Shown: piece after piece, positions 10,177 through 44,026 of the stretch
How positions within the stretch are numbered: position 1 is the first letter of the stretch
How the letters are laid out: each line of letters starts with the position of its first letter
Source of the DNA: a virus
Taxonomy: Duplodnaviria > Caudoviricetes
IMG/VR virus record: IMGVR_UViG_3300044630_004720
DNA: 64,000 bases
Reading direction: 5' to 3' (one strand)
Program-made: the position numbers and the translations under genes
The notes under the pieces: generated by a model
What the model saw: only the letters and a program-made list of their open reading frames with translations
What the model was told of the DNA's origin: nothing
Database searches by the model: none

Positions 10177-10920
10177 ATGAACAACATAGGTTTTGGAATA
10201 TTTTGTTTTGGTGAAGAATATTATTTCAACGGAGCGTTTGAAAAAATAAACAATATTCTTAATGAGGGGTATCATTGTTATGTTCTAACAGATACCCCTG
10301 AAATTTTTACTGCAAAATATACCGATACTTTCGTTCACGTTATTCCATATTTTAGAACATTCAAATCATATTCAGATAAGATGTTACTACCCAAATACAT
10401 CTTAAAGAAACACGACATTAGTATTCTAATTGATGCTGACACACACATCACAGATTATGGTTTCTTAAAAGAATTTAAAAACTATAATTTCAAATACGGA
10501 ATCACATATATTAACACATTAAAAAATCACGCTTCTCATAGAGAATTTGTTAAAGATTTAATTACGATAGATAACCCTGAGTGGAATTCATATCACACAT
10601 ATGCAAGTAAATTATATCCTCCATATGGTGAATATGAAACTATATGGGAATACTTTTTAATAGTTAATAAGATTGGTTTTAATGTTGATGCGTTTTATAA
10701 TTGGTATGAAAAATTACAAATAGCAAAAGAGTTTTCTGATTTAAATCACAATAAAGAGGTGAACGGTGCGGGAGAAGGTGTATCAGTTAGAATAAGTGCT
10801 AGATTATCGGCAACAATGATACAAAGAGATTTATATCTTTATGATTTACTAAAAGATAAAATGATAAGTGTCAGTAAAAGATACACACCAAAACATCTTT
10901 GGCCAGATTGGATGAAATGA
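10177..10920 (+). CDS. Putative GT-A-fold glycosyltransferase-like protein (paralogue of 33338-33970)
   Basis: ILIDAD DxD-like motif. Shares GE(E/F)Y, (S/N)Y(S/F)DK and (G/A)EG motifs with 33338-33970. Confidence 0.4.
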   Translation: MNNIGFGIFCFGEEYYFNGAFEKINNILNEGYHCYVLTDTPEIFTAKYTDTFVHVIPYFRTFKSYSDKMLLPKYILKKHDISILIDADTHITDYGFLKEFKNYNFKYGITYINTLKNHASHREFVKDLITIDNPEWNSYHTYASKLYPPYGEYETIWEYFLIVNKIGFNVDAFYNWYEKLQIAKEFSDLNHNKEVNGAGEGVSVRISARLSATMIQRDLYLYDLLKDKMISVSKRYTPKHLWPDWMK

Positions 10921-11645
10921 TAAGTAACGAAGATTATATTAAGAAATTTATCACCAATAATGATGATGTTCCCGTTACATATAGATGGACACACGGAGCA
11001 ACTGATTTACATATGGGTGATGGTATACTCGTGTATTCGATTATCCAACATATGAGAGCAAAGAATTGTGTTTGTATTGGTTCTGGTGGTGGGTTTATAC
11101 CACGTATTATGACACAAGCGAGAATAGATTTACATAAACAAAAAATATTTGATGGAAACAATGATTATAATTGGGGGGATATTGGGTGCACTTATCTTGT
11201 CGACGCTTGTAATGGTGTTGGTGGGCCTAACGACCTTGAAGACGAGTCCTCATTCTTCAGGAGCACGTTTTACCCGCGTCTTATTAAAGCGACTTCAGTC
11301 GATGCCTACTATGACTTTTTTATTAGACAAGATATTAAAATAGATGTCCTTTTTATTGATGGAGACCATTCATATGAAGGGGTAAAAAAAGACTTTGAAC
11401 TTTACTCACAAATACTATCAGATAATGGTATTATTTTTATACACGACACAGATGCCGACTATGAAGAAACATTAATAGTTTCTGAAGATTCTAAAAAAGA
11501 CCATTATAGATTTGATGGTCCGGCAAAATTTATAAAAGAATTACAAGAAGACTCCGAGTGGAACTTGATTAATCTCTTTAATTTTCGTATATTATCAACA
11601 AAGCCATCATCTAGTGGCATTACGTTGATAAACAGAAGAAAATGA
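10917..11645 (+). CDS. Class I SAM-dependent methyltransferase (Methyltransf_24-like)
   Basis: CIGSGGG motif I and DVLFIDGDHSYEGVKKDF...GIIFIHD. Start re-set to MISNEDY (ATGA overlap). Confidence 0.8.
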   Translation: MISNEDYIKKFITNNDDVPVTYRWTHGATDLHMGDGILVYSIIQHMRAKNCVCIGSGGGFIPRIMTQARIDLHKQKIFDGNNDYNWGDIGCTYLVDACNGVGGPNDLEDESSFFRSTFYPRLIKATSVDAYYDFFIRQDIKIDVLFIDGDHSYEGVKKDFELYSQILSDNGIIFIHDTDADYEETLIVSEDSKKDHYRFDGPAKFIKELQEDSEWNLINLFNFRILSTKPSSSGITLINRRK

Positions 11646-12493
11646 TAAGATTGTTATCAGTTATTGGACACGGAACGGAATTAATTCCACACTTTGTTAA
11701 TCACTACTCAAAATATGTAGATGAAATACAATTCGTGGTATATCAATCTGCCATTCATCCTTCATTAATCAATGATGTCAAAGAAAAAATAAAAGACTAT
11801 AGTAATGTTAAAGTTGTAAAAACAGTTGAGGATAGAATTTTCGATTGGAATAAGGTAACCGCTTTATATAATTTAATTAAATCAAAGAAACCAAATGATT
11901 GGTGGGTTATTGCTGATATTGATGAGTTTCATTTATATCCAAATGATGATTTATATGATTTAATTCAAGATTGTGAAAAAAATGGGTGGGATATTGTTAG
12001 AGGTGGATTTATTGATAGAATCGGACCCGATGGGGAGTTTTCTGAACTAAATGATGACGTGGAAATCTTTAAACAATTTCCAAATATGGGATTTTTCAGA
12101 TATCCTATGAGCCAAGCTTGTCCAAATAAAGTTTGCGTGATAAGAGGTGGGATTGAAATAACATCAGGACAACATTATGCAAAGATTAATGGACAAACAA
12201 CTTGGAGATGGCAAGGTTGGAATCATCCTTTAATTAACTCAGATTCATATGTTCAAGTGCACCATTTTAAATGGGATAGTACATCCATAGATAGAATCAA
12301 AGCAGTTGCATCTATTAAACAAGAATATGCATATTCTGATGAATATGGTAAAATGTACGATGCATTAAGAAAAACAAAATTTAAAATAGATTTAAATAAT
12401 CCTGAATTTATGGTTGAATCAAGTGAAGGTCAAGCAGAGTTTAGGAGATATAGAAAATGGAATAAACTAATAAAAAAAATAATATCAATATGA
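11642..12493 (+). CDS. Glycosyltransferase family 2/92-like protein
   Basis: HFVNHY..YVD, WWVIADIDEF (DxD), NKV...GQHY, VHHFKW. Confidence 0.65.
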   Translation: MIRLLSVIGHGTELIPHFVNHYSKYVDEIQFVVYQSAIHPSLINDVKEKIKDYSNVKVVKTVEDRIFDWNKVTALYNLIKSKKPNDWWVIADIDEFHLYPNDDLYDLIQDCEKNGWDIVRGGFIDRIGPDGEFSELNDDVEIFKQFPNMGFFRYPMSQACPNKVCVIRGGIEITSGQHYAKINGQTTWRWQGWNHPLINSDSYVQVHHFKWDSTSIDRIKAVASIKQEYAYSDEYGKMYDALRKTKFKIDLNNPEFMVESSEGQAEFRRYRKWNKLIKKIISI

Positions 12494-12711
12494 GTGAAAA
12501 AACAAAAGACCCTCAAGTAGAATTGTTAGAACTTGAGAAAAGAAAAGTAAAAGCAATTGAGAAAATTGCAAATTCCTTGGACGCACTTACAGTATGGTTT
12601 GAAGAAATCGACAAACAAGAATGGAGTGACAGAATCCAATATTATTTAGCGGAATGGCATAGTTCAACACAAGACCCTAATAGTCCCACTAATAAAAAAT
12701 TAAAGGGTTAA
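12490..12711 (+). CDS. Hypothetical protein, 73 aa
   Basis: Overlap-coupled ORF in a co-oriented gene run. Confidence 0.6.
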   Translation: MSEKTKDPQVELLELEKRKVKAIEKIANSLDALTVWFEEIDKQEWSDRIQYYLAEWHSSTQDPNSPTNKKLKG

Positions 12712-12718
12712 GTATTGA

Positions 12719-14134
12719 ATGGCAAAAAAGTTAGGATTAATAGTACCATATAGAAATAGACCTAAACATTTAGAACTATTTCAAAAAAGAGTTACAAGAT
12801 ATCTTGATAGACATAAGATACCGTATGAGATTATCATTGTCGAACAAGATGAAGCTAAACTTTTTAATAGAGGTATGCTCCTTAACATTGGTTTTGCTTA
12901 TGCTAAAAAAATGAATTGTGATTATGTGGTTTTTCACGATGTGGATATGGTTCCACTTCACGTGGATTACTCATATTCAAAATTTCCGGTACATTTAGCA
13001 ACAGGGTTTAAACAAGAAGATTGGGAAACACCAAGAATGTTATTTGACACATATTTTGGAGGCGTTACAATGTTCACAGTTGATGACTTTGAAAAAATAG
13101 ACGGATACTCAAACAAATATTGGGGGTGGGGTTATGAAGATGATGATTTGTTATTGAGATGTGTTAAGAAAAAATTAAAGCTAGACACAAAAGTTGTTAA
13201 AAACGTTGGTATTGATGGGCAGAAGTTAAAATTTAACGGATATAACGCATATGTGATTGGTGAAAACAAATTAAACTATAGTAAAGAAAATACAATCTTT
13301 ATTTCTTTTTTTCCAGATGAATTAACTTGTAATCACGAAAAACATAACGACGACTTTTCAATATTTTCAATACCTGGTTTTGATTTTGCAATTTCATATA
13401 ACTCATTTTCAAGATATAACTTTTGTGCATTTGATTCAACTAAGAAACCTATCTATGTTAATTCATTAATCAAAACCAATTACCAAACAAACATAACGAT
13501 TACAATTAATCCCGAGTATAAAAAAATTAGAGTGTTCCAAGATGGACAATTTATAGGAGAAACCGAAGATTTTGATACACTCTACTACTATAAGAAAGAA
13601 AAAAATTTTTATATCGGAGTTGGTAATCCTGAACGAGAAGAAAATCCAAATTATTTCAGAGGATACTTTGATAAATTCATCATATTCAACGATGTACTAA
13701 CTGATGATGAGATTGAACATTTATCAAATAATCACGATGAGGGCGTAATGAAAATGTTTGGTAAAGAAAAACACATTCAACTATACTATAATTCTAAGTT
13801 TGTTGACAATTATCATTTAACAGACTTAACGGGTAATGGTAAACACGGAAAAATAGTTAATTGTGAAATTGTGAATTTGTCATTAGATAATAAAAGGAAA
13901 ATTAATATACCATTTAGAAGAGATTCTGTTTTTATTACCCAACATCACGAAGATAATGGTTTTAGTGGAAACAGATGGAAAACACAAGCAACAAGGTGGA
14001 ATCAATTAAGATACTATAACGAGGTTTCTAAAAATGATGATTTGTTAGATAATGACGGACTATCTACTTTAGAATTTGTGGAGCACGGAAAAACAAAAAA
14101 TAATAATATAACACATATTAATGTAGGAATATGA
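12719..14134 (+). CDS. GT7 (beta-1,4-galactosyltransferase-like) glycosyltransferase with inserted LamG-like domain
   Basis: IVPYRNR, FNRGMLLNIG, FHDVD, YFGGV, GYSNKYWGWGYEDDDL are GT7 hallmarks. A ~230-aa jelly-roll-like insert precedes the terminal GT7 segment. Confidence 0.8.
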   Translation: MAKKLGLIVPYRNRPKHLELFQKRVTRYLDRHKIPYEIIIVEQDEAKLFNRGMLLNIGFAYAKKMNCDYVVFHDVDMVPLHVDYSYSKFPVHLATGFKQEDWETPRMLFDTYFGGVTMFTVDDFEKIDGYSNKYWGWGYEDDDLLLRCVKKKLKLDTKVVKNVGIDGQKLKFNGYNAYVIGENKLNYSKENTIFISFFPDELTCNHEKHNDDFSIFSIPGFDFAISYNSFSRYNFCAFDSTKKPIYVNSLIKTNYQTNITITINPEYKKIRVFQDGQFIGETEDFDTLYYYKKEKNFYIGVGNPEREENPNYFRGYFDKFIIFNDVLTDDEIEHLSNNHDEGVMKMFGKEKHIQLYYNSKFVDNYHLTDLTGNGKHGKIVNCEIVNLSLDNKRKINIPFRRDSVFITQHHEDNGFSGNRWKTQATRWNQLRYYNEVSKNDDLLDNDGLSTLEFVEHGKTKNNNITHINVGI

Positions 14135-15540
14135 GTCACAAATTAGGAATCTGTATACCTTATAGAAATAGGAAACATCATATAGATAAATTAATACCGA
14201 ACCTATCAAAATATTTAACAAAACATAAAATTGACCATAAATTTTATGTTGGACATCAAGTTGATGACAAATTATTTAATAGAGGTGCAATGAAAAACAT
14301 CGCAGCTCATTATGCATTTCAAGAGGGTTGCGACTACATAGCTTGGCACGATGTTGATATGTTACCATATGATGAACAAGGTGTGATTCCTGATTATACA
14401 TATCCTGCCGAACATCCGAGACACATTGCAACAAGACTTTCCAAATACAATTACGGAATATTATATGACCAATACTTCGGAGGAGTGGTTCTTTTCACAA
14501 AAGAACAAGCACTTCAAACAAATGGGTATTCAAATGATTATTGGGATTGGGGTCAAGAAGACGATGATTTATTTTGGAGAGCACATTTTGAAGGGATGAC
14601 AACTGGAAGAGTTATCAAAACTTACCAAAATAAAAAAGTAGCAAACTTTAATGGTGATGATTCTTATTTAGTAATTCCCACAAATAGAGAGTTAAGTTCT
14701 TGTTTACATAATGACCACACAATTACAATAACCTTCAATGCGGAACAACAGGACCACAAAGTTCCAATTTGGTTGGTGGGAGATACTCAAAAGAGATTTG
14801 TAGAATATCCATTACTAAGAAAAGATGGTTCATTTACTTGGGGGATTTCATTCAATAATTCAAGAGCGGTAACAATGTCTCTTTTAGATAGAGAATCAAG
14901 AAATCACTACAATTGGGCAAAACGTTTTGAGGGGATGTGGACACAAGTAACTTTATCATATAATAGTGAGGAAAAGAATGCGTATTTTTACGTAAATGAT
15001 GAATTGATTTCACAGATGAACGGAATAAAACAAGGTATACCGTTCCCTATAGGTAGAGACCTTAAAACACACGATGGTATAAAACCATTTTTATTAGGTT
15101 TTTGTAATCATATGAAAACTTTTTACAAAGGAAAAATTTCTGATGTAAAAATATATGACACATATTTTAGCGACATCAATGAAATGGAATCTAACACTGA
15201 AAATTTAGTAATGGATTTCAATGATGTTAATGAAAAACTGATTAATAACAATGTTACATTCACAAATGAAGACATTGAAATTATAGAGAACATCGTTCCT
15301 TATAGAAAACAAGGAATGTTTTATTGTTTACCACACCAAGACGAAGGTTTTATCAATGGTAAGTGGGCGAAGGGTGAAACAACCGCAAGAAATGAAAAAC
15401 GTTTCGTAACTGAAATGCAACAAAAGAAAATAAATTATAAAGAGGAAGGTTTAAATAAAATTACTGAAGTAACTGAAATTGTTGAACTAGATGAAAAATT
15501 GTATCCAAATACAATGTTCATAAATTGTAAAATGAAATGA
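14131..15540 (+). CDS. GT7 glycosyltransferase with inserted LamG-like domain (paralogue)
   Basis: CIPYRNR, FNRGAMKN, WHDVD, YFGGV, GYSNDYWDWGQEDDDL. The insert has WTQVTLSY...YFYVND...YKGKISDVKIYD. Confidence 0.8.
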   Translation: MSHKLGICIPYRNRKHHIDKLIPNLSKYLTKHKIDHKFYVGHQVDDKLFNRGAMKNIAAHYAFQEGCDYIAWHDVDMLPYDEQGVIPDYTYPAEHPRHIATRLSKYNYGILYDQYFGGVVLFTKEQALQTNGYSNDYWDWGQEDDDLFWRAHFEGMTTGRVIKTYQNKKVANFNGDDSYLVIPTNRELSSCLHNDHTITITFNAEQQDHKVPIWLVGDTQKRFVEYPLLRKDGSFTWGISFNNSRAVTMSLLDRESRNHYNWAKRFEGMWTQVTLSYNSEEKNAYFYVNDELISQMNGIKQGIPFPIGRDLKTHDGIKPFLLGFCNHMKTFYKGKISDVKIYDTYFSDINEMESNTENLVMDFNDVNEKLINNNVTFTNEDIEIIENIVPYRKQGMFYCLPHQDEGFINGKWAKGETTARNEKRFVTEMQQKKINYKEEGLNKITEVTEIVELDEKLYPNTMFINCKMK

Positions 15541-17682: not shown

Positions 17683-17719
17683 GTATTTTTTTTTATATTT
17701 TAATTAAATTGAAAATATT

Positions 17720-19174
17720 ATGTCTAATGAACTAAGAGAATGGCGAAATAAAAACCTTAATTGTGTAAGTAAAAGTTTCTGTGCTGCTAAATGGTATAAT
17801 GCAAGTTTACATTTGGGACACGGATACACCAATTCTTGCCATTTACCACTCCCACACCCAATTGATTTGGAGGAGATTAAAACAAATCCATCAGCATTAC
17901 ATAACACCAAACATAAGAAAGAAGCACGAAGAATGATGTTGACAGGTATTAGACCTGCTGAATGTTCTTATTGTTGGAAAATTGAAGATATTGGTAGAGA
18001 CAACATATCTGACCGAGTTTATAAGAGTCAGATTTATAGTGAAGAGGACATTGCACTATTGAAAGATATTCCATATGATGAAGATATACTACTTAAAACC
18101 GTAGAGGTAAGCTTTGACAGAATTTGTAATTTTGCTTGTAGTTATTGTAACTCTGGTTATAGTACTACTTGGGCAAAAGACATTAAGAATAACGGAGCAT
18201 ATCAAAAGTTTCAAACAAGTAGTGCAGGTGCTTATTATGCTGACGGGTCTTGGTCTGAAAAGTGGGGTAAATTTAATGAAAAGAACCCATATGTACAGGC
18301 ATTTTTAGAATGGTGGCCTGAACTTTCAAAGACACTACAGGAGATTAGAATTACGGGTGGAGAACCATCACAGAGTCACAATTTTTGGGAGTTTATTGAA
18401 GTAATGAAACAATACCCATCTGAAAATTTAAGACTCGCAGTGAACTCTAATTTGGGTTTAAACGAAGCGACACTTTTCAAACTAGTTAGTATCTCTCACG
18501 AGTTACAAATTAAAGAGTTTGACCTATATACAAGTAATGAATCATTCGGAGCTCACGCTGAATATATCAGAGATGGTTTGAAATATGATGTTTGGAGAAG
18601 TAATATGATTAAGTTCATTGAGAACGCTAAATTCCGTTCATTAACCATTATGATGACGATTAATAGTTTATGTTTATTCAGTATCACTGAGTTCTTGGAT
18701 GATATGATTATACTGAAAGAGAAATATGGACCTAACAGACCTAATGTTGATTTTAACATATTGAGATGGCCATCATTTATGTCTCCATTATCACTACCCG
18801 ATAATGTTAAATCAAAATTACATCTTAAATTAAAAACTTGGTACGATAAACATAAAGATAGTCCACTTTTTAGCATTCACGAGAAAGCTCAAATCGAAAG
18901 ATTAATTGATTATATCGAAGTTGTTAGAAGAGGTCATAACCAAACTGAGTTGGATTTTGATAAACAGGCTCACGACTTCAAAAGTTTTTATGAACAATAT
19001 GATGTTAGAAGAAATAAAGATTTCAGGGCAACATTTACAGACCCTGAATTACTTGAGTGGTATGATAGTATCAAAGTAGATTATTCAATCCCTGATGTTG
19101 AAGTAACAAACGGAGCAATAACACATTATGAACCTGGTGAGTATGTGTCAGATGTTAAAACAAATATCATTTAA
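17720..19174 (+). CDS. Radical SAM enzyme with N-terminal Cys-rich segment (paralogue)
   Basis: CNFACSYC, RITGGEP, FCAAKW..SCHL..ECSYCW. Confidence 0.85.
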   Translation: MSNELREWRNKNLNCVSKSFCAAKWYNASLHLGHGYTNSCHLPLPHPIDLEEIKTNPSALHNTKHKKEARRMMLTGIRPAECSYCWKIEDIGRDNISDRVYKSQIYSEEDIALLKDIPYDEDILLKTVEVSFDRICNFACSYCNSGYSTTWAKDIKNNGAYQKFQTSSAGAYYADGSWSEKWGKFNEKNPYVQAFLEWWPELSKTLQEIRITGGEPSQSHNFWEFIEVMKQYPSENLRLAVNSNLGLNEATLFKLVSISHELQIKEFDLYTSNESFGAHAEYIRDGLKYDVWRSNMIKFIENAKFRSLTIMMTINSLCLFSITEFLDDMIILKEKYGPNRPNVDFNILRWPSFMSPLSLPDNVKSKLHLKLKTWYDKHKDSPLFSIHEKAQIERLIDYIEVVRRGHNQTELDFDKQAHDFKSFYEQYDVRRNKDFRATFTDPELLEWYDSIKVDYSIPDVEVTNGAITHYEPGEYVSDVKTNII

Positions 19175-21689: not shown

Positions 21690-21717
21690 AAAAAGGGACT
21701 TAATAGTCCCTTTTTTT
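21690..21717. terminator. Bidirectional intrinsic terminator between convergent genes
   Basis: aaaagggact-taat-agtccctttt with an A tract before and a T tract after. Confidence 0.85.
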
Positions 21718-25801: not shown

Positions 25802-25802
25802 T

Positions 25803-28233: not shown

Positions 28234-28234
28234 A

Positions 28235-29203: not shown

Positions 29204-29256
29204 ATAAACGTTGTAATTCACTTTAAATTTAAATAAAAATTTTCTATATTTAAACA

Positions 29257-30528: not shown

Positions 30529-30529
30529 T

Positions 30530-31567: not shown

Positions 31568-31579
31568 TACTTATTGTAG

Positions 31580-33226: not shown

Positions 33227-33336
33227 AAATTTTTAATTGGATAAAGAACAAGATAGTTCAATGGAAAAAGAAAAGGGAATTTAAAAAGAAATTAGCGGAA
33301 TTGAAAAAAAGAGACCCATTTGTTTACAAGCATTAA
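33223..33336 (+). CDS. Small basic protein, 37 aa (not in ORF track)
   Basis: MKIFNWIKNKIVQWKKKREFKKKLAELKKRDPFVYKH. It has an ATGA overlap with the carbamoyltransferase stop and ends 1 nt before the next ATG. Confidence 0.7.
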   Translation: MKIFNWIKNKIVQWKKKREFKKKLAELKKRDPFVYKH

Positions 33337-33337
33337 T

Positions 33338-34943: not shown

Positions 34944-35381
34944 ATGATATACTGGTTCACAGGACAACCCGGCGCAGGTAAAACTACCCTATCAAAACAT
35001 CTGATTTCGTATTTAGAAAATACCGAAAAAGTGATTCACATTGATGGGGATGACCTAAGATTAATTTTTGAAAACAAAGACTTTTCAGAAACAGGCAGAA
35101 GAAAAAACATAGAAAGAGCACAAGACATTGCTCGTTTTATGAATGAAAAGGGATACACAGTTGTGGTGTCATTAGTTTCTCCATATAAAGATATGAGAGA
35201 TAACTTTAAAACTCACAATTCGGTGATTGAATTTTATGTACACACAACTGAAACAAGAGGAAGAGAATCGTTTCACGTGTCAAATTACGAACCCCCAACA
35301 GAAAATTTTATTGATATTAATACCACTAACAAAGATGAAAGAGAATCTTTCATCGAATTAATTAAATTTATAGATTTATGA
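34944..35381 (+). CDS. cysC: Adenylyl-sulfate (APS) kinase
   Basis: WFTGQPGAGKTTL P-loop, IDGDDLR, DFSETGRRKNI, SLVSPY..R, YEPP. Confidence 0.9.
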   Translation: MIYWFTGQPGAGKTTLSKHLISYLENTEKVIHIDGDDLRLIFENKDFSETGRRKNIERAQDIARFMNEKGYTVVVSLVSPYKDMRDNFKTHNSVIEFYVHTTETRGRESFHVSNYEPPTENFIDINTTNKDERESFIELIKFIDL

Positions 35382-35761
35382 AAAAGTATGCATTGTACAT
35401 CGGAAGATGGCAAAATTGGCACGCAGGACACGAATGGTTAATTAGCCAACAATTAGATAAAGGGAAAAATGTATGGGTGGCTATTAGGGATGTTGAAGTT
35501 GATGAGAACAACCCTAAAACCGCACAAGAAGTATTCCAAGAACTAATCAAAGTACCATTTTTTAATGAGAATTTTGATAAAATACTTCTCTCAATTATAC
35601 CTGATATCGAATCCGTAAACTATGGTAGAGGTGTAGGTTATGAGGTGATTTATCATAATCCCCCATCGGATATTGAAAGTATCAGCGGAACCAAAATAAG
35701 ACAAGGTTATATGGACAGCAACGGAGACGTTATTGTCTATTCAGTAGATGATGTGAAATGA
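35378..35761 (+). CDS. HIGH-family nucleotidylyltransferase (candidate minimal sulfate adenylyltransferase)
   Basis: YIGRWQNWHAGH (HxGH) and ISGTKIR. Overlap-coupled to cysC. Confidence 0.65.
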   Translation: MKKYALYIGRWQNWHAGHEWLISQQLDKGKNVWVAIRDVEVDENNPKTAQEVFQELIKVPFFNENFDKILLSIIPDIESVNYGRGVGYEVIYHNPPSDIESISGTKIRQGYMDSNGDVIVYSVDDVK

Positions 35762-35979: not shown

Positions 35980-36540
35980 ATGGATAAATTATATACGGTT
36001 GAAAATTTTCTTAGTGAAAATGAATGTTTGAGTATCTTAACAAAATACAAATCCGAATTAAAACTAAAACCCGCTGAAGTGGCGGTAAAGGAGGGCAATA
36101 CATTTAGTGATAAAAGGAAATCATCCATTGCATTTATTGACGGTATAGAAACGATAGATGAGAGAATTAAGAACACATTAAAGAATCTTATACAAATCAA
36201 AGGATTTGAAGTAACAGGTTTAGGTCCATACCAATTTACGGAATATAAAGTCGGTGAGTATTATGATTGGCACACCGACTCATCATCAATTGGAGATGAA
36301 TATAAGGACAGATTTTGCTCTATTGTCATTCAGATTAATGATGAATATGATGGTGGATATCTTCAATTAAAAGATGAGAATGGAAATAATATTCAATTGG
36401 ATAAGGGTATTGGTACAATGTATATATTTTATTCAAATATAGTACATAGAGTGGTTCCGGTCACTAATGGAGTTAGGTATTCTTTAGTTAATTGGGTATC
36501 TCTTAGAAAATTAGAAAATTTTAAAAAAACACTATTGTAA
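35980..36540 (+). CDS. 2OG-Fe(II) oxygenase (prolyl 4-hydroxylase-like)
   Basis: YDWHTD, YDGGYL, HRVVPVTNGVRYSLV. Confidence 0.88.
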   Translation: MDKLYTVENFLSENECLSILTKYKSELKLKPAEVAVKEGNTFSDKRKSSIAFIDGIETIDERIKNTLKNLIQIKGFEVTGLGPYQFTEYKVGEYYDWHTDSSSIGDEYKDRFCSIVIQINDEYDGGYLQLKDENGNNIQLDKGIGTMYIFYSNIVHRVVPVTNGVRYSLVNWVSLRKLENFKKTLL

Positions 36541-36555
36541 CATACACCCATCCCA

Positions 36556-36584
36556 TTGATAAAAAAAATACCCATATTTATAAT
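36556..36584 (+). promoter_or_regulatory. sigma70-type promoter (overlaps a TATTTATA element)
   Basis: TTGATA-N17-TATAAT, 24 nt upstream of the ATG at 36609. Confidence 0.7.
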
Positions 36585-36608
36585 AGAATAAAAAAATAAT
36601 AAGACAAT

Positions 36609-38060
36609 ATGAAATCACTATTAATCGCGACGGACTTAATAAAAACAGTTTCAGGAGATGTAAAAGTACTGGAAACAAACACAAACGCTCTTGTAAATTA
36701 TAAATTTGACGATAATATACATTATTTGGATAATCTTACTGCGTTTATCCAATCCAACCAATTCCAAACGGTACATTGTATATATCCAATTTACTCTTCT
36801 AATTTTACCAAAAAGCTAAAAGAAATATGTGAATCATTAAACATATCTGTCGTTCAGCACCCTACGGATACCGGTTCAGTTACCGTTCCATACATTGAAG
36901 ATTCAGAAGATATTTTGATTATTAGAATTTCATATGATACGACTGCGATAATTGATGAGGAGTACTGTAAAGACAAATTCAAATTACAGAGCATTATTAA
37001 TAACAAAACCTATGGTTCTAAAACATTTATACCAAACGAAATAGATAATTTTGCGTCAATATCAGATTTTCAATATTCAGACGATGTACCAAATTTCATA
37101 GTAAAAAAGAGATTTCCTAATTATGATAGAGAAATTTATCCCAAATTATATAAAGTACAAAACTTGGCAGAATTAAACGAATTAAAGACTACAATAGAAT
37201 CCGATTGTTATTTACAAGAATTCCACCATTCAGAATTAGTACAGGGTAAAAGATGTGTTATAAGAAGTTTAGACCTTCTTTATGGTAGTAATTTAGATGT
37301 GTTAAATATTTGTAGTTTTTATAAGACAAACCAATTGGCTGAGAATCAATGGGAAAACACATATAATGAGGAGGGGTTGTTGGATAAAAAAGATAGACCA
37401 AAATATATAACAAACACAAACGAAAATCATAATTCTTTTTGGCCTTACGTTTATGATGTTGACCAAGAATTGGTTATGGGTGATGGAGGTAGAAAACCAT
37501 TTAATGAATTACAAATTGGTAATAGTGTTAAAACTGTACATATTGATGGGTTAGATTTGGATGAAAGAGCATATAAAATGTTTGAGTGGGTCGGAAACTA
37601 TAATGATTTTGTATCTAATATTTATCTTAAAGAAACCCAGGTAACATCTATATTTACATCTCCCCCAACATCACAATTATTTTTAAGAGTTACTTTAGAT
37701 GACGGAGTAACAGAATGGGATGATTTGAATGAAACACCCCTATTAGTTAAGGTTGGTGAAACAATAATTTTTAAGGAGTTTGGAGACCTTGAAATTGGAG
37801 ATAGTATTGTAACTTTTAACTTTGAAACTAATTTACCTGAAATTAAAAACGTACAATCTATTGATGTTGTCTTTAAAGATGAACAAGTGTTAGGTTCTAT
37901 TGATGTTGAACCAGAAGATGTCTATATGCCGTTGGTTTCACAATATATTACGATTATTCAACACAACCAATGTAATAAAGGTTGTAAAGCAACAGGATGT
38001 GCGGATGCATATTATTGTGGAGATTGTACACCTGTTTTTTGTGGACCACCCCCAAAATAA
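36609..38060 (+). CDS. Circularly permuted ATP-grasp-like domain + Hint (intein-like) domain + 30-aa Cys-rich C-terminal peptide
   Basis: N-terminal ATDLIKTVSGDVKVLETNTN, IVKKR and YLQEF resemble CP-ATP-grasp motifs. Residues 281-453 carry Hint blocks (LVMGDGGRKPFNELQIGNSV; DLEIGD; IDVE...IIQHN). Confidence 0.6.
   Translation: MKSLLIATDLIKTVSGDVKVLETNTNALVNYKFDDNIHYLDNLTAFIQSNQFQTVHCIYPIYSSNFTKKLKEICESLNISVVQHPTDTGSVTVPYIEDSEDILIIRISYDTTAIIDEEYCKDKFKLQSIINNKTYGSKTFIPNEIDNFASISDFQYSDDVPNFIVKKRFPNYDREIYPKLYKVQNLAELNELKTTIESDCYLQEFHHSELVQGKRCVIRSLDLLYGSNLDVLNICSFYKTNQLAENQWENTYNEEGLLDKKDRPKYITNTNENHNSFWPYVYDVDQELVMGDGGRKPFNELQIGNSVKTVHIDGLDLDERAYKMFEWVGNYNDFVSNIYLKETQVTSIFTSPPTSQLFLRVTLDDGVTEWDDLNETPLLVKVGETIIFKEFGDLEIGDSIVTFNFETNLPEIKNVQSIDVVFKDEQVLGSIDVEPEDVYMPLVSQYITIIQHNQCNKGCKATGCADAYYCGDCTPVFCGPPPK
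37449..37967 (+). other. Hint/intein-like domain (Val281-Asn453), C-terminal His-Asn retained, N-terminal Cys and block-B TxxH absent
   Basis: VYDVDQELVMGDG aligns to the CxxxxTxVxMADG pattern. The terminal codons cac-aac (HN) lie at 37962-37967. Confidence 0.65.
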
Positions 38061-38096
38061 ATTTAAAAATAAAAATAAAAATAAAAATTATATATT

Positions 38097-38207
38097 ATGT
38101 TAATACAAACTATATTTGCACCTACGGAACAAGGAACTAAAACAGGAGTTGAAACCACAATACAAGATATGGTTTTAACAATTTTATCCGATGTCCAATC
38201 TTCTTAA
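38097..38207 (+). CDS. Small Thr-rich peptide, 36 aa (not in ORF track)
   Basis: MLIQTIFAPTEQGTKTGVETTIQDMVLTILSDVQSS fills the gap between two genes and has an A-rich leader. Confidence 0.55.
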   Translation: MLIQTIFAPTEQGTKTGVETTIQDMVLTILSDVQSS

Positions 38208-38228
38208 TTAATTGTTTAATTCAAACCG

Positions 38229-38522
38229 ATGCCAATAGATATACGAGAAATTACGGTAGCTTGGTGGGATTCTTATTTTGCGGATGATAATCAAAAAAAA
38301 TTAGCTAAAGAAAGGTTAAGTATTTGTGAAAGTTGTCCATCATTAGAACAAAAATTTAAAAAAATAAGAAAAATAACTATTAGTGTTTGCGGAGAATGTG
38401 GATGCCCAATTACCAAAAAAGTATTTTCAAATAAGTTTAATGCGTGTCCTTTGGGTAAATGGAAAGAAGTAGATGAATCACAACCAGAATTTTTTAAAAT
38501 TAAAAAGGATAAATTAATATGA
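38229..38522 (+). CDS. Small Cys-rich, probably Zn-binding protein (DUF6171-like)
   Basis: RLSICESCP...CGECGCP...CPLGKW. Confidence 0.6.
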   Translation: MPIDIREITVAWWDSYFADDNQKKLAKERLSICESCPSLEQKFKKIRKITISVCGECGCPITKKVFSNKFNACPLGKWKEVDESQPEFFKIKKDKLI

Positions 38523-39118
38523 GTTACCCCTTTTATCAGGAAGTTATTTTTACAGACGAAGAGTGTAAAAAAATAATAGAATATTCTAAAGTTTATCCTG
38601 CAAATGCTGAAAAGAGAAAATTAGAACCTAATATAAATCTTGAAACAAATAGGGCGGAACAAAATATACCATCTATTGATGGAAAGAAAAAAGGAAAAGC
38701 CTTCTTTGTTTATGATATTGATAGGGAGGAAAATACAGAATGGGTTTTTCAAAAACTATTAAATTGGTTTCAAAAAGTTTCAAATATTAAATTAAAAGAA
38801 ACACATACATTAAATGGTATGACTCTACTTAACTATAAAGTTGGTGATTTTTTTATGAGACATACTGACATATATCCAAATTTTGAGTGGAGGAGATGGA
38901 CAATAAACATTCAGTTGGGTGACCAATATAAAGGAGGTGATTATGTTTTATATTTGGATGAGAAGGAAATTGTTTTGAACAAAGAAGTAGGTAACGCAAT
39001 TGCATATTGGGCAGGAACCGAACACGAAGTTAAAGAAATCAAAGAAGGTGAAAGATGGTCTATTGTGTGTTCGGTGGGAAAACACCTGATTATTGAGAAC
39101 GAAAAAAAGTTATTGTAA
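38519..39118 (+). CDS. 2OG-Fe(II) oxygenase
   Basis: RHTD, YKGGDY, EHEVKEIKEGERWSIV. Confidence 0.85.
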   Translation: MSYPFYQEVIFTDEECKKIIEYSKVYPANAEKRKLEPNINLETNRAEQNIPSIDGKKKGKAFFVYDIDREENTEWVFQKLLNWFQKVSNIKLKETHTLNGMTLLNYKVGDFFMRHTDIYPNFEWRRWTINIQLGDQYKGGDYVLYLDEKEIVLNKEVGNAIAYWAGTEHEVKEIKEGERWSIVCSVGKHLIIENEKKLL

Positions 39119-39119
39119 A

Positions 39120-39818
39120 ATGTCATTATTAATAAATAATGAATTAATTTGGATATCTGTTCCAAGATGTGCCAGTTATTCAATCGAAACATCTTTTTAC
39201 AACTCAAATTTAAAAATAGAACATTATAATAATTCGTTTAATCATTTAGCACCGGGTGATGTTGGGTTTGTACACGAACACTTTAATTTATATAATTTAA
39301 ATAATAGATGGTTAAATAAAAAAACAATTAGAATCAAAAGAGACTGGATGGAAAGATGGTTATCTGCTTTAGAACATCTTTGGTTCAGTATTGAGAAAGC
39401 AAACAATAGAAAGCCTATTATACCTTATGAGGAAATTGATAACGATTTTATTTATCAAACATTCACAAAAAAATTTGGAAATGAACTATATTCTGAAGGA
39501 GGTCAGTATAAAATATTTTACCATTTAATAAAAGATTTTGTACTTACAGAAAGTTTCAAATTAGGAACGAGGACCGGATTACTATGGTCTCAAAACTATT
39601 GGTTAAGTGGTGAAAAAAAGTGTGACTTCGAATTTGATATAAATGAATTAGATAAGTTCGCGGATTTTATCGAAAAAAAGTATGGTGAAAAATTAATTAT
39701 TGAACATCAAAACAAATCAAAAAAGAAAACGAACAAAATCATTATAAATGATGATTTAAAAAATCACATATGGGATGTCTTTGAATCTCCATTTCATAAA
39801 GTTTCAAAAATTTTTTAA
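39120..39818 (+). CDS. Sulfotransferase family 2-like protein
   Basis: WISVPRCASYSI (5'-PSB loop) and RDWMERWLSA (3'-PB), SQNYWL. Start re-set to MSLLIN. Confidence 0.65.
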   Translation: MSLLINNELIWISVPRCASYSIETSFYNSNLKIEHYNNSFNHLAPGDVGFVHEHFNLYNLNNRWLNKKTIRIKRDWMERWLSALEHLWFSIEKANNRKPIIPYEEIDNDFIYQTFTKKFGNELYSEGGQYKIFYHLIKDFVLTESFKLGTRTGLLWSQNYWLSGEKKCDFEFDINELDKFADFIEKKYGEKLIIEHQNKSKKKTNKIIINDDLKNHIWDVFESPFHKVSKIF

Positions 39819-39835
39819 CTTTCAATAAATAAAAT

Positions 39836-40207
39836 ATGATTATTAAAAATGAAATTCAATTAGAGGTAAAATATATAGACGAAACAATGGGTTTTGGTGT
39901 TTTTGCTCTTCAAGATATTGATGAAGGTATTATTGTTGAAACTTGTTATAGTATTAAAACATATAACCAAGTGTTTAATCCTTGTTTTGATTACCTTTTT
40001 AGTTTAAGTAACACGGAATCCTTATTACCTTTGGGATATGGTTCAATATATAATCATAGTTACACACCAAATATACATTGGAGAATAGTAAATATGGAAA
40101 AATCAGTCATTGAATTTTACGCACTAAAAAAAATAAGGACGGGTGATGAGTTGTGCCACAACTATGGGCAACACTATTGGAAAGTGAGGGAAAAAAAATT
40201 ATTATAA
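39836..40207 (+). CDS. SET-domain protein (Lys methyltransferase fold)
   Basis: GFGVFA..DI..G, YNHSYTPN, ALKKIRTGDELCHNYG. Confidence 0.88.
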   Translation: MIIKNEIQLEVKYIDETMGFGVFALQDIDEGIIVETCYSIKTYNQVFNPCFDYLFSLSNTESLLPLGYGSIYNHSYTPNIHWRIVNMEKSVIEFYALKKIRTGDELCHNYGQHYWKVREKKLL

Positions 40208-40230
40208 ACGAAAAACAAAATTAATTTGAT

Positions 40231-40896
40231 ATGTCAAATCTTTGGACATTTGGAGATTCGTTTACGGCGGGCGATGGATGTGTGGAAAATATACCTATTA
40301 GAGATGGTGATTTTAAATATTATAACGAATATAAACAATCAGATAGTGATATATGGCCAAACATATTAGGTGAAACTATTAGATATAACGTAAAAAATAT
40401 GGGAAAAAGTGGGGCAAGTAATGATTATATTTTAGATTCTATTATTGACAATTTCAATATGATAGAACCAGATGATGTAGTTATAATTGAAAAAACATTT
40501 TACCAAAGATTCGATGTTCCTAAATTAAATAGTAATGAATTTCACACAATATATGGTGAAGCGCTTTATATAATGGATACTGATTTAAAAAAAAATAAAT
40601 ATAATAAAGATAAATTAGAAATTGAAACAATATTAAATTATGGTGTTTTATTTTGTCAAAACTCTTTGTTTCAGGAAAGGCAGAACAAACGATTTCGATT
40701 TATTCAAACATTATTAAAATCAAACGTAAAAAAAATTTTAATTTGGGATATTGATAGTGATTTAAGAAAATCAATCGAAACAATTTCACAACATACAAAA
40801 GGTAAAATAAAGGATTATCATTTTAGCTTTAATGGTCATAAAGAATTTAGTGAACTGCTGTATAAAAAATTATTTACTAAACCCATATTAATTTAA
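40231..40896 (+). CDS. SGNH/GDSL-like protein (copy 2)
   Basis: WTFGDSFTAG, GKSGASN, DYHF. Confidence 0.6.
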   Translation: MSNLWTFGDSFTAGDGCVENIPIRDGDFKYYNEYKQSDSDIWPNILGETIRYNVKNMGKSGASNDYILDSIIDNFNMIEPDDVVIIEKTFYQRFDVPKLNSNEFHTIYGEALYIMDTDLKKNKYNKDKLEIETILNYGVLFCQNSLFQERQNKRFRFIQTLLKSNVKKILIWDIDSDLRKSIETISQHTKGKIKDYHFSFNGHKEFSELLYKKLFTKPILI

Positions 40897-40915
40897 GTGA
40901 AAAATAAGGATTGAT

Positions 40916-41413
40916 ATGATAGTACAAAGACAAATTTTTACTGAAATCGAATGTACCCAAATAATAAATTTAATAAAGGAAAATCAAAATATTTGGGAGA
41001 ATAGTGATAGGAGATATGAATCTAAGTCAATATTCTATAATGAAAAAACTAAATGGATTTTCGATAAGATGGTTAATTTTTTCCAAGAATCCACGCACCA
41101 TCAAATTTTAGAACTAAAAAAAGAAATTCATTTTCACACATACAATAAAGGCGATTGGTTCGGTAAACACAATGACACTAGAGATAGGAGAGTATACTCT
41201 GTGGGTGCATTGTTAAATTCTGATTTTGATGGAGGAGATTTTAAAATATATACCCCACAGGAAACGACATTAACTAAAAATGCAGGCAATGCGTATGTAT
41301 TTGATGTGACTTATGAACACGAAATAACAAGAATTACTAACGGAATCAAATATTCAATTATATGGTTCGTACAAGATAATCACATTAAAATTAAACAATT
41401 ATCAATTATATAA
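40916..41413 (+). CDS. 2OG-Fe(II) oxygenase
   Basis: GKHND, FDGGDF, EHEITRITNGIKYSI. Confidence 0.82.
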   Translation: MIVQRQIFTEIECTQIINLIKENQNIWENSDRRYESKSIFYNEKTKWIFDKMVNFFQESTHHQILELKKEIHFHTYNKGDWFGKHNDTRDRRVYSVGALLNSDFDGGDFKIYTPQETTLTKNAGNAYVFDVTYEHEITRITNGIKYSIIWFVQDNHIKIKQLSII

Positions 41414-41414
41414 T

Positions 41415-42665
41415 ATGTTGACCATATATGTTCACCATTTTTACACTAATTTATTATTTCAAAAATTATTTCACAATGTTAAAGACAAAGAAATTTTTGA
41501 AATAGACAATACTAATGGTGCAATAAGAGAGATTACTTTCAATTATAATAACCACAGTTTTAAAGTTATTTTTAACCCCGAAATCATTGATGATGAGGGA
41601 TTACATATTATTGATTATTTCGGTGCACTTAGACAAAGAGGACAGGGACATACGTTATTTGAAAATACTGAAATGAATGGTTCAGAATCATTTGCAGTAC
41701 TGGAGAGAATCGTTGAATTGATTGAGGATAAGAAAAATTGGATTATAACTCTTTTCAGAACAGAAAAACTTTTCATACTAAATGATAATACAAAAGTAAA
41801 ACTTGGGGGGACGGAGCAAATAGGTGAAACAGAACAAAAAATATTAAAACTATCAAACCATCAAATTTTAACTGATAGTGTTTTTATTGATGAACTTGTA
41901 AAAAATAAGTACTTAAACGTACACAATGCGTTTACCAATATAATTTTTCAATGGAATGAATTGATTAGTATTAGGTGGTTTTATGATTATAAAAACATAG
42001 CAGAAACAAATAATCCTAAATATAAATTAGGTTACAGTGTCAGGAGACATAAACCATACAGAATTAAACTAGCAAAAAGGTTATCAAAAATTGATGACAT
42101 ATTTGTTTCACAAACAAATTCAATCAACGAACCGAACTCAATGACGTACTATGAAAAAATAGATAGTATATATTTCAACGACATTGATTCAGAAATTGAC
42201 TTCCAAAACATTAGAGGTATTGATAATTTAACAATCGGACTTGATTTCTTTTTAAGAATTCTTTCAATGTATAAGTTACAAATATGTGATGAATCTTGGT
42301 CTGATAATGCTTCTAACTACACTAGTCAATATTTGAGTGAGAAAACTATCGGTTTAATATTAGCGAATGTCCCATTCATTTGTACTCATTCATATCCTTA
42401 TGATTGTTTAACTAAATTAATAGACGCCCCTAAACACCCGTTTTACGAGGAGTCTAAAAAATACCAAGGTAATGTCGACCTCTTTGTTGAATTTGTGGAA
42501 ACATTTTTAAGTGACTTCGATAGAAACTATAAATTATGTAAAGATTGGGTTGAGGAATGTCATAACATTTTTATGGATAGATTACATAACGAGAACTCAA
42601 TGCTCGATATGATTATTAATGATGAGATAAAAAGTAGAGAACAGATTAAATTTAATTTAATTTAA
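41415..42665 (+). CDS. Divergent GT10-like SEK family protein (copy 4)
   Basis: RRHKPYR, CDESW, YLSEKTIGLILANVPF. Confidence 0.4.
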   Translation: MLTIYVHHFYTNLLFQKLFHNVKDKEIFEIDNTNGAIREITFNYNNHSFKVIFNPEIIDDEGLHIIDYFGALRQRGQGHTLFENTEMNGSESFAVLERIVELIEDKKNWIITLFRTEKLFILNDNTKVKLGGTEQIGETEQKILKLSNHQILTDSVFIDELVKNKYLNVHNAFTNIIFQWNELISIRWFYDYKNIAETNNPKYKLGYSVRRHKPYRIKLAKRLSKIDDIFVSQTNSINEPNSMTYYEKIDSIYFNDIDSEIDFQNIRGIDNLTIGLDFFLRILSMYKLQICDESWSDNASNYTSQYLSEKTIGLILANVPFICTHSYPYDCLTKLIDAPKHPFYEESKKYQGNVDLFVEFVETFLSDFDRNYKLCKDWVEECHNIFMDRLHNENSMLDMIINDEIKSREQIKFNLI

Positions 42666-42671
42666 AAAATT

Positions 42672-43256
42672 GTGGTCATTAAGATATACGATAACAAAAT
42701 TTTATCGCCAGTTAAATGTGGTACAAGATACTTAGATAAAATTTGGTTGAATAAACTTGTTGAGTACACACATAATGATTACTTGAGATTTCCTAAAGTA
42801 AAATATATTATTGTTAGGTCACCATTAGAACATTTAATAACCGCACTTCATACTGAAACCGTTGGATACATAAATGAATTTGGTAAAGTAATGGATTTCT
42901 ACCACCAACTCAATGATTTTATTAGTCCAATTGGGGCAACACATTGGTCAACACAATTTTACAAATATCTTTATTATTACAGAAATAGATACGGAAGTGA
43001 TGTTGAGGTAGTTGAACTATCAAACTTAACTACCTTATTACAAAATTTAGGTTATGATTTGGAGTATAACTCGGAAGAGTATAATTTTAAAAAGTATGAA
43101 CATTGGTGGGAAAAGAACGAATTATTTGATATTTTAAAAGAAGCCTATCCCCAAGAAATCAAATGGCTTCTTGAAAAGGTAGAAGAACAAAATGTTTATT
43201 ATAATAAACTTTTAAACAATGAAACAGATAATAATCTGATTGGTAATTTAATATGA
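42672..43256 (+). CDS. Degenerate sulfotransferase-like protein
   Basis: PVKCGTRYL and IIVRSPLEHLITAL resemble PAPS-binding motifs. GTG start. Confidence 0.45.
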   Translation: MVIKIYDNKILSPVKCGTRYLDKIWLNKLVEYTHNDYLRFPKVKYIIVRSPLEHLITALHTETVGYINEFGKVMDFYHQLNDFISPIGATHWSTQFYKYLYYYRNRYGSDVEVVELSNLTTLLQNLGYDLEYNSEEYNFKKYEHWWEKNELFDILKEAYPQEIKWLLEKVEEQNVYYNKLLNNETDNNLIGNLI

Positions 43257-44026
43257 AAGCATTAAAGTTTTGGTCCAAGTCAGGATTCGATGTTGCAAGT
43301 TATAAATGGAAGTTAGAGGAAAGAAGAAATAAATCCTTTAATGGTTCTGGTTCTGATGAAAGCGGAACCAACAAGTACACCTACAACGAAATGGGGTTTA
43401 GGGGAGACTCAATATACAAAGACGGTTTTAGAATTATGTCGGTTGGTTGCTCCCATACCGAAGGTGTCGGGGTGAATGATTGGGAAACCTGGCCACACTT
43501 GTTTTCCAAATTAATACCAAATGGAGTCGATTTAAACCTTGGATTTGGTGGAAGGAGTAATGATTATGTTGCTCGAGCTATTGTGTCATTAATAGACACT
43601 ATGAGACCGAATTTGGTTAATATTATGTATACCTACCCTTCTCGTAAGGAATACTACAAATATAATGGTGATTTGGAACCATTCCATATGACACCTTGGG
43701 GATACTTTAAGGAGGATTCTGAGGGACAGGAAGAGTACAAATCGATAGCAAGAGTTACCCACGATGAGAATGATTTAATTGGATGGTACAAAAATCATTT
43801 ACTCATCACCAACTTTTTAGAGAATAGAAATATTCCATATATATGGAACGGAAGCTTCCTTATGGATGGTGAGTATACTGATAAAAATAGGTTCGATGGT
43901 GACTATGGAGACTTCAGAGAGTTTTCTGTGGATGGTAAACACGCAACCGCCAAACACAATGAGGAATACTCCAAAAAACTATATGGATTTATAAAATCCA
44001 ATTTCCCCAATTATTTACCCAAATAA
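43253..44026 (+). CDS. SGNH/GDSL-like protein (copy 3)
   Basis: SVGCSHTEG, NLGFGGRSN, DGKHA. Confidence 0.6.
   Translation: MKALKFWSKSGFDVASYKWKLEERRNKSFNGSGSDESGTNKYTYNEMGFRGDSIYKDGFRIMSVGCSHTEGVGVNDWETWPHLFSKLIPNGVDLNLGFGGRSNDYVARAIVSLIDTMRPNLVNIMYTYPSRKEYYKYNGDLEPFHMTPWGYFKEDSEGQEEYKSIARVTHDENDLIGWYKNHLLITNFLENRNIPYIWNGSFLMDGEYTDKNRFDGDYGDFREFSVDGKHATAKHNEEYSKKLYGFIKSNFPNYLPK

Follow-up and report, generated by a model that had tools for sequence, protein, structure and literature searches.

What would a virus do with some 34 kb of glycan-building genes placed between two genes for very long, Ser/Thr-rich fibre proteins? This question is raised by the 64-kb stretch of DNA analysed here in its whole length (hereafter the window), which belongs to the IMG/VR virus record IMGVR_UViG_3300044630_004720. 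A preliminary description of this DNA had pointed to a dense block of glycan enzymes at 10177-44026 (hereafter the island; genes are named by their lower coordinate) and had proposed that the virus builds its own complex, highly decorated O-glycan on its fibres or capsid. Pfam, profile searches, structural models and amino acid composition confirmed the block and its position between two fibre loci, and its gene content gives good support to a complex and heavily tailored glycan pathway encoded by the virus itself. As to the acceptor, the second half of that proposal, direct cytoplasmic glycosylation of the phage's own Ser/Thr-rich fibres is the leading candidate, which we put forward tentatively and with less than even confidence.

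The two tandem genes 12719 and 14131, which had been described as members of glycosyltransferase (GT) family 7, matched both the N-terminal (PF13733, 75.8 and 62.4 bits) and the C-terminal (PF02709, 70.1 and 69.6 bits) GT7 families of Pfam with E-values from 1e-17 to 1e-21, in addition to Laminin_G_3, and a family profile of 20 sequences matched the structures of the beta4GalT enzymes B4GalT1 and B4GalT7 at E 1e-45. Furthermore, an AlphaFold2 model (pLDDT 88.6) superposed on B4GalT1, with a Foldseek match to 6fwt (E 7e-14, 34% identity), and the DVD and WGWGxEDDD motifs (D74, D76, W135, W137, G138, E140, D141, and D143) are invariant in the 20 sequences. Judged by sequence and model, both are genuine GT7 enzymes. 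Their catalytic domain is 31-34% identical to those of B4GalT1 and B4GalT7 over ~157 residues (root-mean-square deviation, rmsd, 2-3 Å) and shares with them the metal motif DVD, the loop WGWGxEDDD, and the DGL segment of the C-terminal part. The architecture is nevertheless a variant one, as a Laminin_G_3 beta-sandwich of ~230 residues (LamG) splits the domain, with the EDDD loop on one side of it and the C-terminal His/DGL segment on the other, and the GT7 sequence picks up again behind the insert, so that the catalytic domain is not contiguous. Polypeptide GalNAc-transferases, in which a lectin-type domain is joined to a GT-A catalytic domain, offer an analogy, whereas in the phage enzymes, which appear to be cytoplasmic and have no signal anchor, LamG is inserted within the domain and not appended to it. 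Homologs with the GT7-LamG combination form 1,709 protein clusters, none of them named, on contigs of up to 345 kb.

The GT7 pair is followed by two radical S-adenosylmethionine (SAM) enzymes of the N-terminal-twitch type, which scored 316.8 (15537) and 284.1 bits (17720) against NF033640 (curated cut-off 170), and in which the CxxxCxxC motif (C134, C138, and C141) and the N-terminal cluster of cysteines (C19, C38, C80, and C83) do not vary among 22 sequences. Because a homolog of the GT7 insert, 16939, stands free between these two genes, the sequences suggest that LamG is an adaptor which can be reused with enzymes of several kinds. The idea that the LamG domains of the enzymes are close kin of the LamG proteins encoded beside the fibres was rejected (hhalign probability 12%). 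Upstream of the GT7 pair, 10899 encodes a SAM methyltransferase (Methyltransf_24), and the GT2-like label given to 11642 has a weak match behind it (23.8 bits, under the Pfam cut-off of 27.5). Two genes labelled GT-A-like, probably 10177 and 33320, found no family match in Pfam, PHROG, or NCBIfam and showed a DxD-like motif by eye only. This first core module recurs in several related viral loci (L001/2, L016-19, L047, and L059-61). A 73-aa open reading frame (ORF) between the GT2-like and GT7 genes, which lies below the 100-aa ORF threshold and was hence missed initially, has its coding sequence kept in eight related loci.

Another family of transferases is represented by the paralogs 19174, 25803, and 29257, for which Pfam, PHROG, and NCBIfam gave no match and a profile search of the PDB nothing usable. 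A model of 29257 made with AlphaFold2 from a 36-sequence alignment (pLDDT 80.8) has the GT-B fold and matched GT4-type structures (7mi0 and 6eji, Z 11.0-11.2) as well as the GT10 enzymes FUT11 (9s6a) and FUT9 (8d0o), which scored Z 10.7 and gave the smallest rmsd values (4.2-4.4 Å); further matches were a chlorovirus transferase, GtfA, Gtf3 (Z 10.5), SdgB, and Asp1. Four genes had been called GT10-like. Three of them are these GT-B-fold paralogs and 41415 is a probable fourth, suggested only by the SEKT motif that it has in common with them and by a language-model lead; because GT10 and GT4-type structures tie in the model comparison, the GT10 label itself is consistent with the fold but not established, the pointers to PF00852 (Glyco_transf_10) being language-model leads (0.79-0.83) only and a by-eye resemblance of TET...SEKT to FENS...TEK. 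As for the two genes described as DUF6734-like, 30530 matched this Pfam family strongly and 33967 weakly, and an atlas lead (0.92, few shared features) points to DUF6734 being a GT-A enzyme. The five GT2/GT4 genes announced at 52-59 kb were all recovered, three as GT2 and two as GT4-like, with four of the five above Pfam cut-offs, and this second cluster is syntenic in the relative G001.

The sugar-nucleotide enzymes of the preliminary description were found too: the window encodes four epimerases/dehydratases of the short-chain dehydrogenase/reductase (SDR) type, an RmlC-like epimerase, and a split E1-like pair of the thiamine pyrophosphate (TPP) type. Most of these genes lie in an eight-gene nucleoside diphosphate (NDP)-sugar operon, in which two of the three SDRs are nearest to GDP-fucose synthase and which is syntenic in L003-5, L010/11, and L017-19; a convergent terminator hairpin (21690-21715) stands behind the PhyH gene that faces it. 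The TPP pair is not only split into alpha- and beta-like halves but also shortened (27062-27691, 209 aa; 21716-22264, 182 aa). Because TPP E1-like pairs add two-carbon branches to keto-sugars in antibiotic pathways (e.g. AviB1/AviB2), the analogy suggests that the phage pair could yield a two-carbon-branched sugar.

Tailoring by methyl, carbamoyl, sulfo, and acyl groups had also been claimed, and this claim stood in part. Beside the methyltransferase, the carbamoyltransferase 31580 has both of its domains (Carbam_trans_N, 201.5 bits; Carbam_trans_C, 206.8 bits); its homologs in cyano- and pelagiphages are annotated as 'Nol-like carbamoyltransferase', and it is 27-30% identical to its counterparts in S-SSM7, P-SSM2, and HTVC008M. 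The APS (adenosine 5'-phosphosulfate) kinase is always directly followed by 35378, an HxGH protein resembling cytidylyl- and adenylyl-transferases, with overlapping reading frames, and the two may represent a minimal sulfate-activation pair. The sulfotransferase could not be verified: for the 39093/42672 family a PDB profile search and a Pfam scan were both empty, the motif having been seen by eye only. The acyl part is weak, as the GDSL/SGNH assignments in the window come from weak matches and motifs, and the 43253 family had no usable match in the PDB profile search. Ten ORFs of the island had no match in Pfam, PHROGs, or NCBIfam.

The flanking fibre proteins are paralogs (up to 69% identity across shared segments) with 21-residue repeats of the LNSFTSS type, ten in fibre 1 and fourteen in fibre 2, and with 18 and 9 copies of SGS[AS]Q, respectively; the C-terminal part of fibre 2 is globular like that of fibre 1. 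Ser and Thr together make up 30% of fibre 1 and 33% of fibre 2, against a median of 11% in ORFs of at least 400 aa of related loci, which agrees with the Ser/Thr-dominated flanks described before. The final 80-100 residues of fibre 2 match a 'virion structural protein' of the cyanomyophages S-CAM4, S-WAM2, and ACG-2014e, and also genes of cyanopodophages. Small Laminin_G_3 proteins with common N-termini come after each fibre gene (50431 has the termini common to these proteins). The fibre-adjacent LamG proteins match phrog_8510, 'virion structural protein', and the two behind fibre 1 are probably fibre-associated virion proteins.

Table 1. Features of the 64-kb window; single numbers are the lower coordinates of genes.
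Feature	Coordinates	Strand	Content or basis
Fibre protein 1	35..6436	+	2133 aa; S 18.5%, T 11.6%, G 11.4%; globular C-terminus
Two LamG (Laminin_G_3) proteins after fibre 1	6438-7160, 7172-7951	+	Pfam; paralogs of 48887 and 50431
Glycine-rich protein (Gly_rich_2, 24% Gly)	8127..9785	+	Pfam and composition; probably structural
Core module 1, start	10177..12711	+	247-aa protein (10177), SAM methyltransferase (10899), GT2-like (11642), 73-aa ORF (12490-12711)
Tandem GT7 (beta4GalT-like) with LamG jelly-roll inside the catalytic domain	12719..15540 (12719, 14131)	+	Pfam, profile, model
Two N-terminal-twitch radical SAM enzymes	15537-16955, 17720-19174	+	NF033640
Free-standing LamG-like protein between radical SAM genes	16939-17682	+	hhalign to GT7 insert 92%, E 7e-7
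GT-B paralog 1	19174..20460	+	Paralogy with 25803 and 29257
PhyH-type Fe(II)/2-oxoglutarate (2OG) dioxygenase	20909..21685	+	Pfam
Eight-gene NDP-sugar operon	21716..29221	-	Three SDRs, RmlC-like, TPP E1-like pair, GT-B paralog 2, SGNH-like
NDP-sugar operon, first half		-	SDR (28235), RmlC-like 3,5-epimerase (27688), TPP E1-alpha-like (27062), GT-B paralog 2 (25803)
NDP-sugar operon, second half		-	SDR-2OG oxygenase fusion (24038), SDR (23067), SGNH-like (22261), TPP E1-beta-like (21716)
Middle unit	29257..34911	+	GT-B paralog 3 (29257, modelled), DUF6734 (30530), carbamoyltransferase (31580), 33320, DUF6734-like (33967)
APS kinase, then 127-aa HxGH nucleotidyltransferase-like protein (35378)	34944..35761	+	Pfam; NMNAT E 8e-4
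Fibre-proximal tailoring block	35980..44026	+	2OG-Fe(II) oxygenases, Hint-like, SET, SGNH-like, probable fourth GT-B
2OG-Fe(II) oxygenases in tailoring block	35980, 38519, 40916	+	
483-aa protein with Hint-like part	36609-38060	+	Profile against inteins E 9e-4; Cys-rich C-terminus
Proteins with sulfotransferase-like motif	39093, 42672	+	By eye
SET domain protein	39836	+	
SGNH-like proteins	40231, 43253	+	Weak matches and motifs
Probable fourth GT-B	41415	+	
Conserved fibre-2 upstream element	44053..44081	+	TATTTAT core, then conserved leader
Fibre protein 2	44082..48743	+	1553 aa; S 18.4%, T 14.7%
Fibre-2 companions	48887..51618	+	LamG protein (48887), 205-aa protein (49614), 395-aa protein (50431)
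Second transferase cluster	52119..59241	-	GT2 (52119, 53219, 54844), SDR (53843), GT4-like (55934, 57859), SGNH-like (57185)

Related DNA turned up in viral collections only. The 29257 protein has relatives in 62 IMG/VR viral loci and the fibre N-terminus in another 62, and many of the former loci have whole island modules in common with the window, not GT-B alone. One of the loci found with the fibre N-terminus, L083, is 99% identical and is evidently the same phage, and the part of the window at 28-34 kb occurs in lake and other freshwater metagenome runs from at least 15 studies. A portal of the T4 type (PF07230, E 1e-70 to 1e-112) is encoded by the relatives G003, G004, and G005, of which G004 (288.7 kb) is 100% complete with direct terminal repeats, and HSP70 (PF00012) is absent from the five related records searched, two of which are 100% complete. 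Because of this portal and of the lack of HSP70 in the relatives, the group is, by its sequences, T4-like and not of the moraphage lineage, the window's own genome being assigned through these relatives. Membership in the moraphages, freshwater jumbo phages with heat-shock (DnaK/HSP70) genes in every member (PMC12619734), had been considered and was dropped for the same absence. On this reading, the phage would be a T4-like jumbo phage of fresh water whose tail-fibre ('host recognition') section has been expanded into a self-contained, cytoplasmic set of glycan enzymes. Searches of 50,697 phage records with 20 kb of the window (megablast) and with GT7-LamG (tblastn) gave no match. Except for Ralstonia phage RsoM2USA, where matches are limited to radical SAM, carbamoyltransferase, and SDR genes, no isolated phage matches the core genes (GT7-LamG, the N-twitch radical SAM pair, and the GT-B family), and RsoM2USA was rejected as an equivalent system, as few genes are shared and its giant neighbour protein is not Ser/Thr-rich.

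From the observed gene content, folds, protein solubility, and gene order we infer the following sugar chemistry, acceptor, and role of LamG. The NDP-sugar operon would turn host NDP-hexose into unusual 6-deoxy sugars, possibly two-carbon-branched, by means of its SDR dehydratase/epimerase/reductases, RmlC-like epimerase, and TPP E1-like pair. About a dozen soluble transferases (GT7-LamG, GT-B, GT2, GT4, and DUF6734) would attach these sugars singly and without a lipid carrier, with LamG, in the GT7 enzymes and beside the radical SAM enzymes, acting as a substrate-docking module. Decoration with methyl and carbamoyl groups, and probably with sulfate and acyl groups as well, would then finish the glycan, along with modifications by the radical SAM and 2OG enzymes. 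The products would be O-glycosylated Ser/Thr-rich fibre proteins. A more ambitious form of this scheme, a complete cytoplasmic mucin-like O-glycosylation line working on fibres of 1500-2100 residues, with LamG docking and branched, carbamoylated, methylated, and sulfated glycan ends, seems to us rather doubtful.

Direct cytoplasmic transfer to a soluble acceptor is proposed because all island proteins look soluble and machinery for a lipid carrier or for export is missing. In fact, none of the island ORFs showed a transmembrane segment in a hydropathy scan (the two genes with hydrophobic 19-mers are 27062, where the stretch is internal, and 62847, outside the island), and the Pfam families for Wzx, Wzy, ligase, ABC exporter, and priming transferase were absent from the island; the same holds for the bacterial O-antigen/capsule families (priming transferase, flippase, polymerase, ligase, and exporter) in all 58 or so ORFs of at least 100 aa that are densely packed in the window. 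Gene order points to the fibres. The comparison covered 22 non-redundant loci in which 9 kb or more of sequence precede a fibre homolog. Counting genes on the same strand, a homolog of 36609 was found in 14, APS kinase with 35378 in 12, 39093 in nine, and the carbamoyltransferase and 43253 in seven loci each. The tailoring block stays directly upstream of the fibre gene in 14/22 loci even when the fibre N-terminus has only 31% identity, and the transferase genes proper lie mostly beyond the 10-kb flank. G001 retains the full order of fibres, LamG, Gly-rich protein, island, fibre, and GT2/GT4 cluster, and in G003 the island continues via further tailoring genes into LamG and fibre genes. Soluble enzymes, the missing export machinery, and the position of the tailoring block are the reasons why we favour a phage protein as the target.

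The TATTTAT element upstream of fibre 2 is nearly identical in 14 loci despite divergent flanks. Its core is also present before genes for fibres and structural proteins in G001, G003, and G004; of 38 intergenic gaps, 13 contain this core, compared with ~1.4 expected (an estimate from base composition), and it is a candidate late-promoter element. In this phage and three relatives (window and loci L076, L077, L079, and L080), the core stands 25-45 nt before the start codons of such genes, and it is rare elsewhere, with 20 copies on both strands of the 64 kb against an estimated ~74 expected. The APS-kinase unit has a conserved sigma70-like sequence upstream, TTGAyT-N17-TATATT, in 12 loci, and the 29257 unit has TTTAAA-N17-TATATT, which is probably sigma70-like; a generic sigma70 scan did not rise above shuffled controls, so the weight lies on the conserved alignments alone. 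The T4 late motif TATAAATA precedes one gene only. We infer the temporal class, early or late, of these elements. Contigs from RNA libraries of three lake metatranscriptomes cover island and fibre genes, which is weak support as DNA carry-over is possible and timing is not derivable from them; they leave 36-44 kb largely uncovered and are uninformative there.

Several of these data weigh against the fibres as acceptor. Inside the island the TATTTAT element precedes 36609 alone, and because the main transferase operons do not have it and some units carry sigma70-like elements, the island has to be read as several transcription units that are not simply co-regulated with the fibres. In G004, island and fibres are ~25 kb apart with the portal gene in between, and Ser/Thr-rich large ORFs lie within 10 kb of the GT-B genes in few of the 62 loci. 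A composition rich in Ser, Thr, Gly, and Asn is usual in phage fibres. The co-variation of island and Ser/Thr-rich fibres, which the preliminary description had suggested following across related genomes, did not discriminate, because every fibre homolog is Ser/Thr-rich (25-41% Ser+Thr) with or without the module (fractions of 0.31-0.35 and 0.25-0.41, respectively), the richness being independent of module adjacency. Furthermore, soluble transferases could act on lipid-linked intermediates of the host. This leads to a remodelling of the host envelope, in which lipopolysaccharide (LPS) O-chain, capsule, or another surface glycan would be altered via the host's own carrier, flippase, and ligase, with superinfection block or changed grazer recognition as the outcome. 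RmlC-like, SDR, GT2, GT4, and NodU-type carbamoyltransferase genes are typical of O-antigen loci, the sigma70-like and not fibre-type elements on some units would fit, and such clusters have been read as host O-chain modification in the case of the pelagimyophage host recognition cluster and of cyanomyophage LPS genes (PMC7029224; PMC12801897). However, membrane proteins are missing from the window, as are a priming phosphoglycosyl transferase, a flippase, a polymerase, and a ligase; at least 12 transferases plus exotic tailoring seem excessive for editing a host polymer during a lytic cycle, and there would be no obvious reason for the order of tailoring block and fibre gene. On balance we consider envelope remodelling rather unlikely, yet only slightly less probable than the fibre reading.

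The several transcription units with differing upstream elements, together with enzymes of the kind found in peptide and natural-product pathways (N-twitch radical SAM enzymes, the Hint-containing and SET domain proteins, and 2OG oxygenases), would also suit some other soluble acceptor, be it a non-virion protein of phage or host or a small molecule, or separate targets for each module; as neither a precursor peptide nor a carrier protein was found and the conserved neighbour is the fibre gene, this seems improbable. DNA hypermodification, with the transferases glycosylating modified bases against restriction, has a precedent in viral transferases (Pyle 2024, in the form in which PMC12619734 cites it), and the alpha- and beta-glucosyltransferases of T4 are among the structures similar to the GT-B model (Z 9.1-10.2), though no more so than many other GT-B enzymes. 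This explanation is very improbable, since the only ThyA-family gene of the window, 63211, encodes a canonical thymidylate synthase (E 6e-54) and not a hydroxymethylase, the absence of GATC and CATG speaks of site avoidance rather than blanket protection of bases, and known DNA-glycosylation systems use one to three transferases as opposed to a dozen with NDP-sugar tailoring. A bacterial origin of the DNA, from an O-antigen or capsule locus or from a host island next to a prophage, is hardly conceivable: the gene content does overlap with O-antigen loci and IMG/VR flags the relative G002 as 'provirus', but giant fibre genes stand on both sides, the related loci (62 and 62) are viral, relatives have T4 portals and one is complete with direct terminal repeats, and the window has no tRNA or housekeeping genes and a uniform composition of ~31% GC. 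The preliminary description had named a bacterial origin as what would overturn its proposal, and it can be set aside.

Islands beside fibres have been described before in T4-like phages of aquatic habitats, and the present one is unusually rich. The host recognition cluster of pelagimyophages and cyanomyophages is a hypervariable region of 34-45 kb that combines fibres and many transferases with sugar genes of the LPS type and cassettes of radical SAM genes; GT8 dominates in it and modification of the host O-chain is assumed (Zaragoza-Solas et al. 2020, PMC7029224). It shares with our region the T4-like aquatic myophage context and the mixture of fibres with transferases, NDP-sugar enzymes, 2OG oxygenases, and radical SAM genes, and the order fibre-island-fibre-transferases characteristic of such a cluster was found in the window and in G001; the present phage differs in coming from lakes, in being larger (at least 213 kb), and in its other core genes. 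The large cyanomyophages P-SSM2, S-SCSM1, and S-SCSM2R have at least 10 transferases with NDP-sugar epimerases, RmlC, and a Nol-like carbamoyltransferase, and those with 13 transferases were interpreted in terms of host-surface or DNA modification (PMC12801897). Many transferases, epimerases, RmlC, and a related carbamoyltransferase are common to both, whereas the transferase families differ and the genes are here packed between two fibre genes and encode no membrane segments. The mycobacteriophages Che8, Corndog, and Myrna O-glycosylate their own virion proteins in the cytoplasm, and in the account of Freeman et al. (2023) given in PMC12619734 virion glycosylation by phages is demonstrated for mycobacteriophages only. 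Soluble phage transferases adjoin virion genes in both cases; the mycobacteriophage cassettes, according to the same account, consist of two to four genes whose products act on capsid and tail-tube subunits at their C-terminal tails, whereas ~45 genes are present here and the candidate acceptors are fibres of 1500-2100 aa. The glycosylation of serine-rich repeat adhesins by GtfA/B, Gtf3, and SdgB is similar in its soluble GT-B enzymes, its stepwise course, and the modification of Ser-rich repeats before export. However, the adhesin GT-B enzymes match our model no better than many others, which limits the likeness to the fold, and the fibre repeats are 21-residue units in contrast to the SASASAST-type dipeptide tracts of adhesins. 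Three parts look new, namely the LamG-split GT7, the radical SAM/LamG unit, and the GT-B family without a family match.

If the fibres are decorated, this would be by far the most elaborate protein-glycosylation system known in a phage. To our knowledge, virion glycosylation is known in few mycobacteriophages, with two to four genes each. It would also be a common system, as thousands of uncultured aquatic phages with GT7-LamG would have sugar-coated fibres, with consequences for receptor recognition, host range, resistance to proteases and grazers, and phage decay in lakes, and with a bearing on how to interpret the 'LPS genes' that are routinely listed among the auxiliary metabolic genes of aquatic phages. 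Even if the host envelope is the target, the island holds uncharacterised chemistry in its lectin-split eukaryote-type beta4GalT, its N-twitch radical SAM enzymes, and its TPP pair.

Finally, GATC and CATG occur 0 times each in the 64 kb, against ~193 of each expected from base composition, and other sites are depleted as well (CTAG, 39; GCGC, 7 of 46; AGCT, 58; ACGT, 104), which amounts to strong avoidance of restriction sites. Just past the second transferase cluster, the window carries the thymidylate synthase gene (63211-63999, cut by the window end) and a gene for a DNA N6/N4 methyltransferase (60472-61173).

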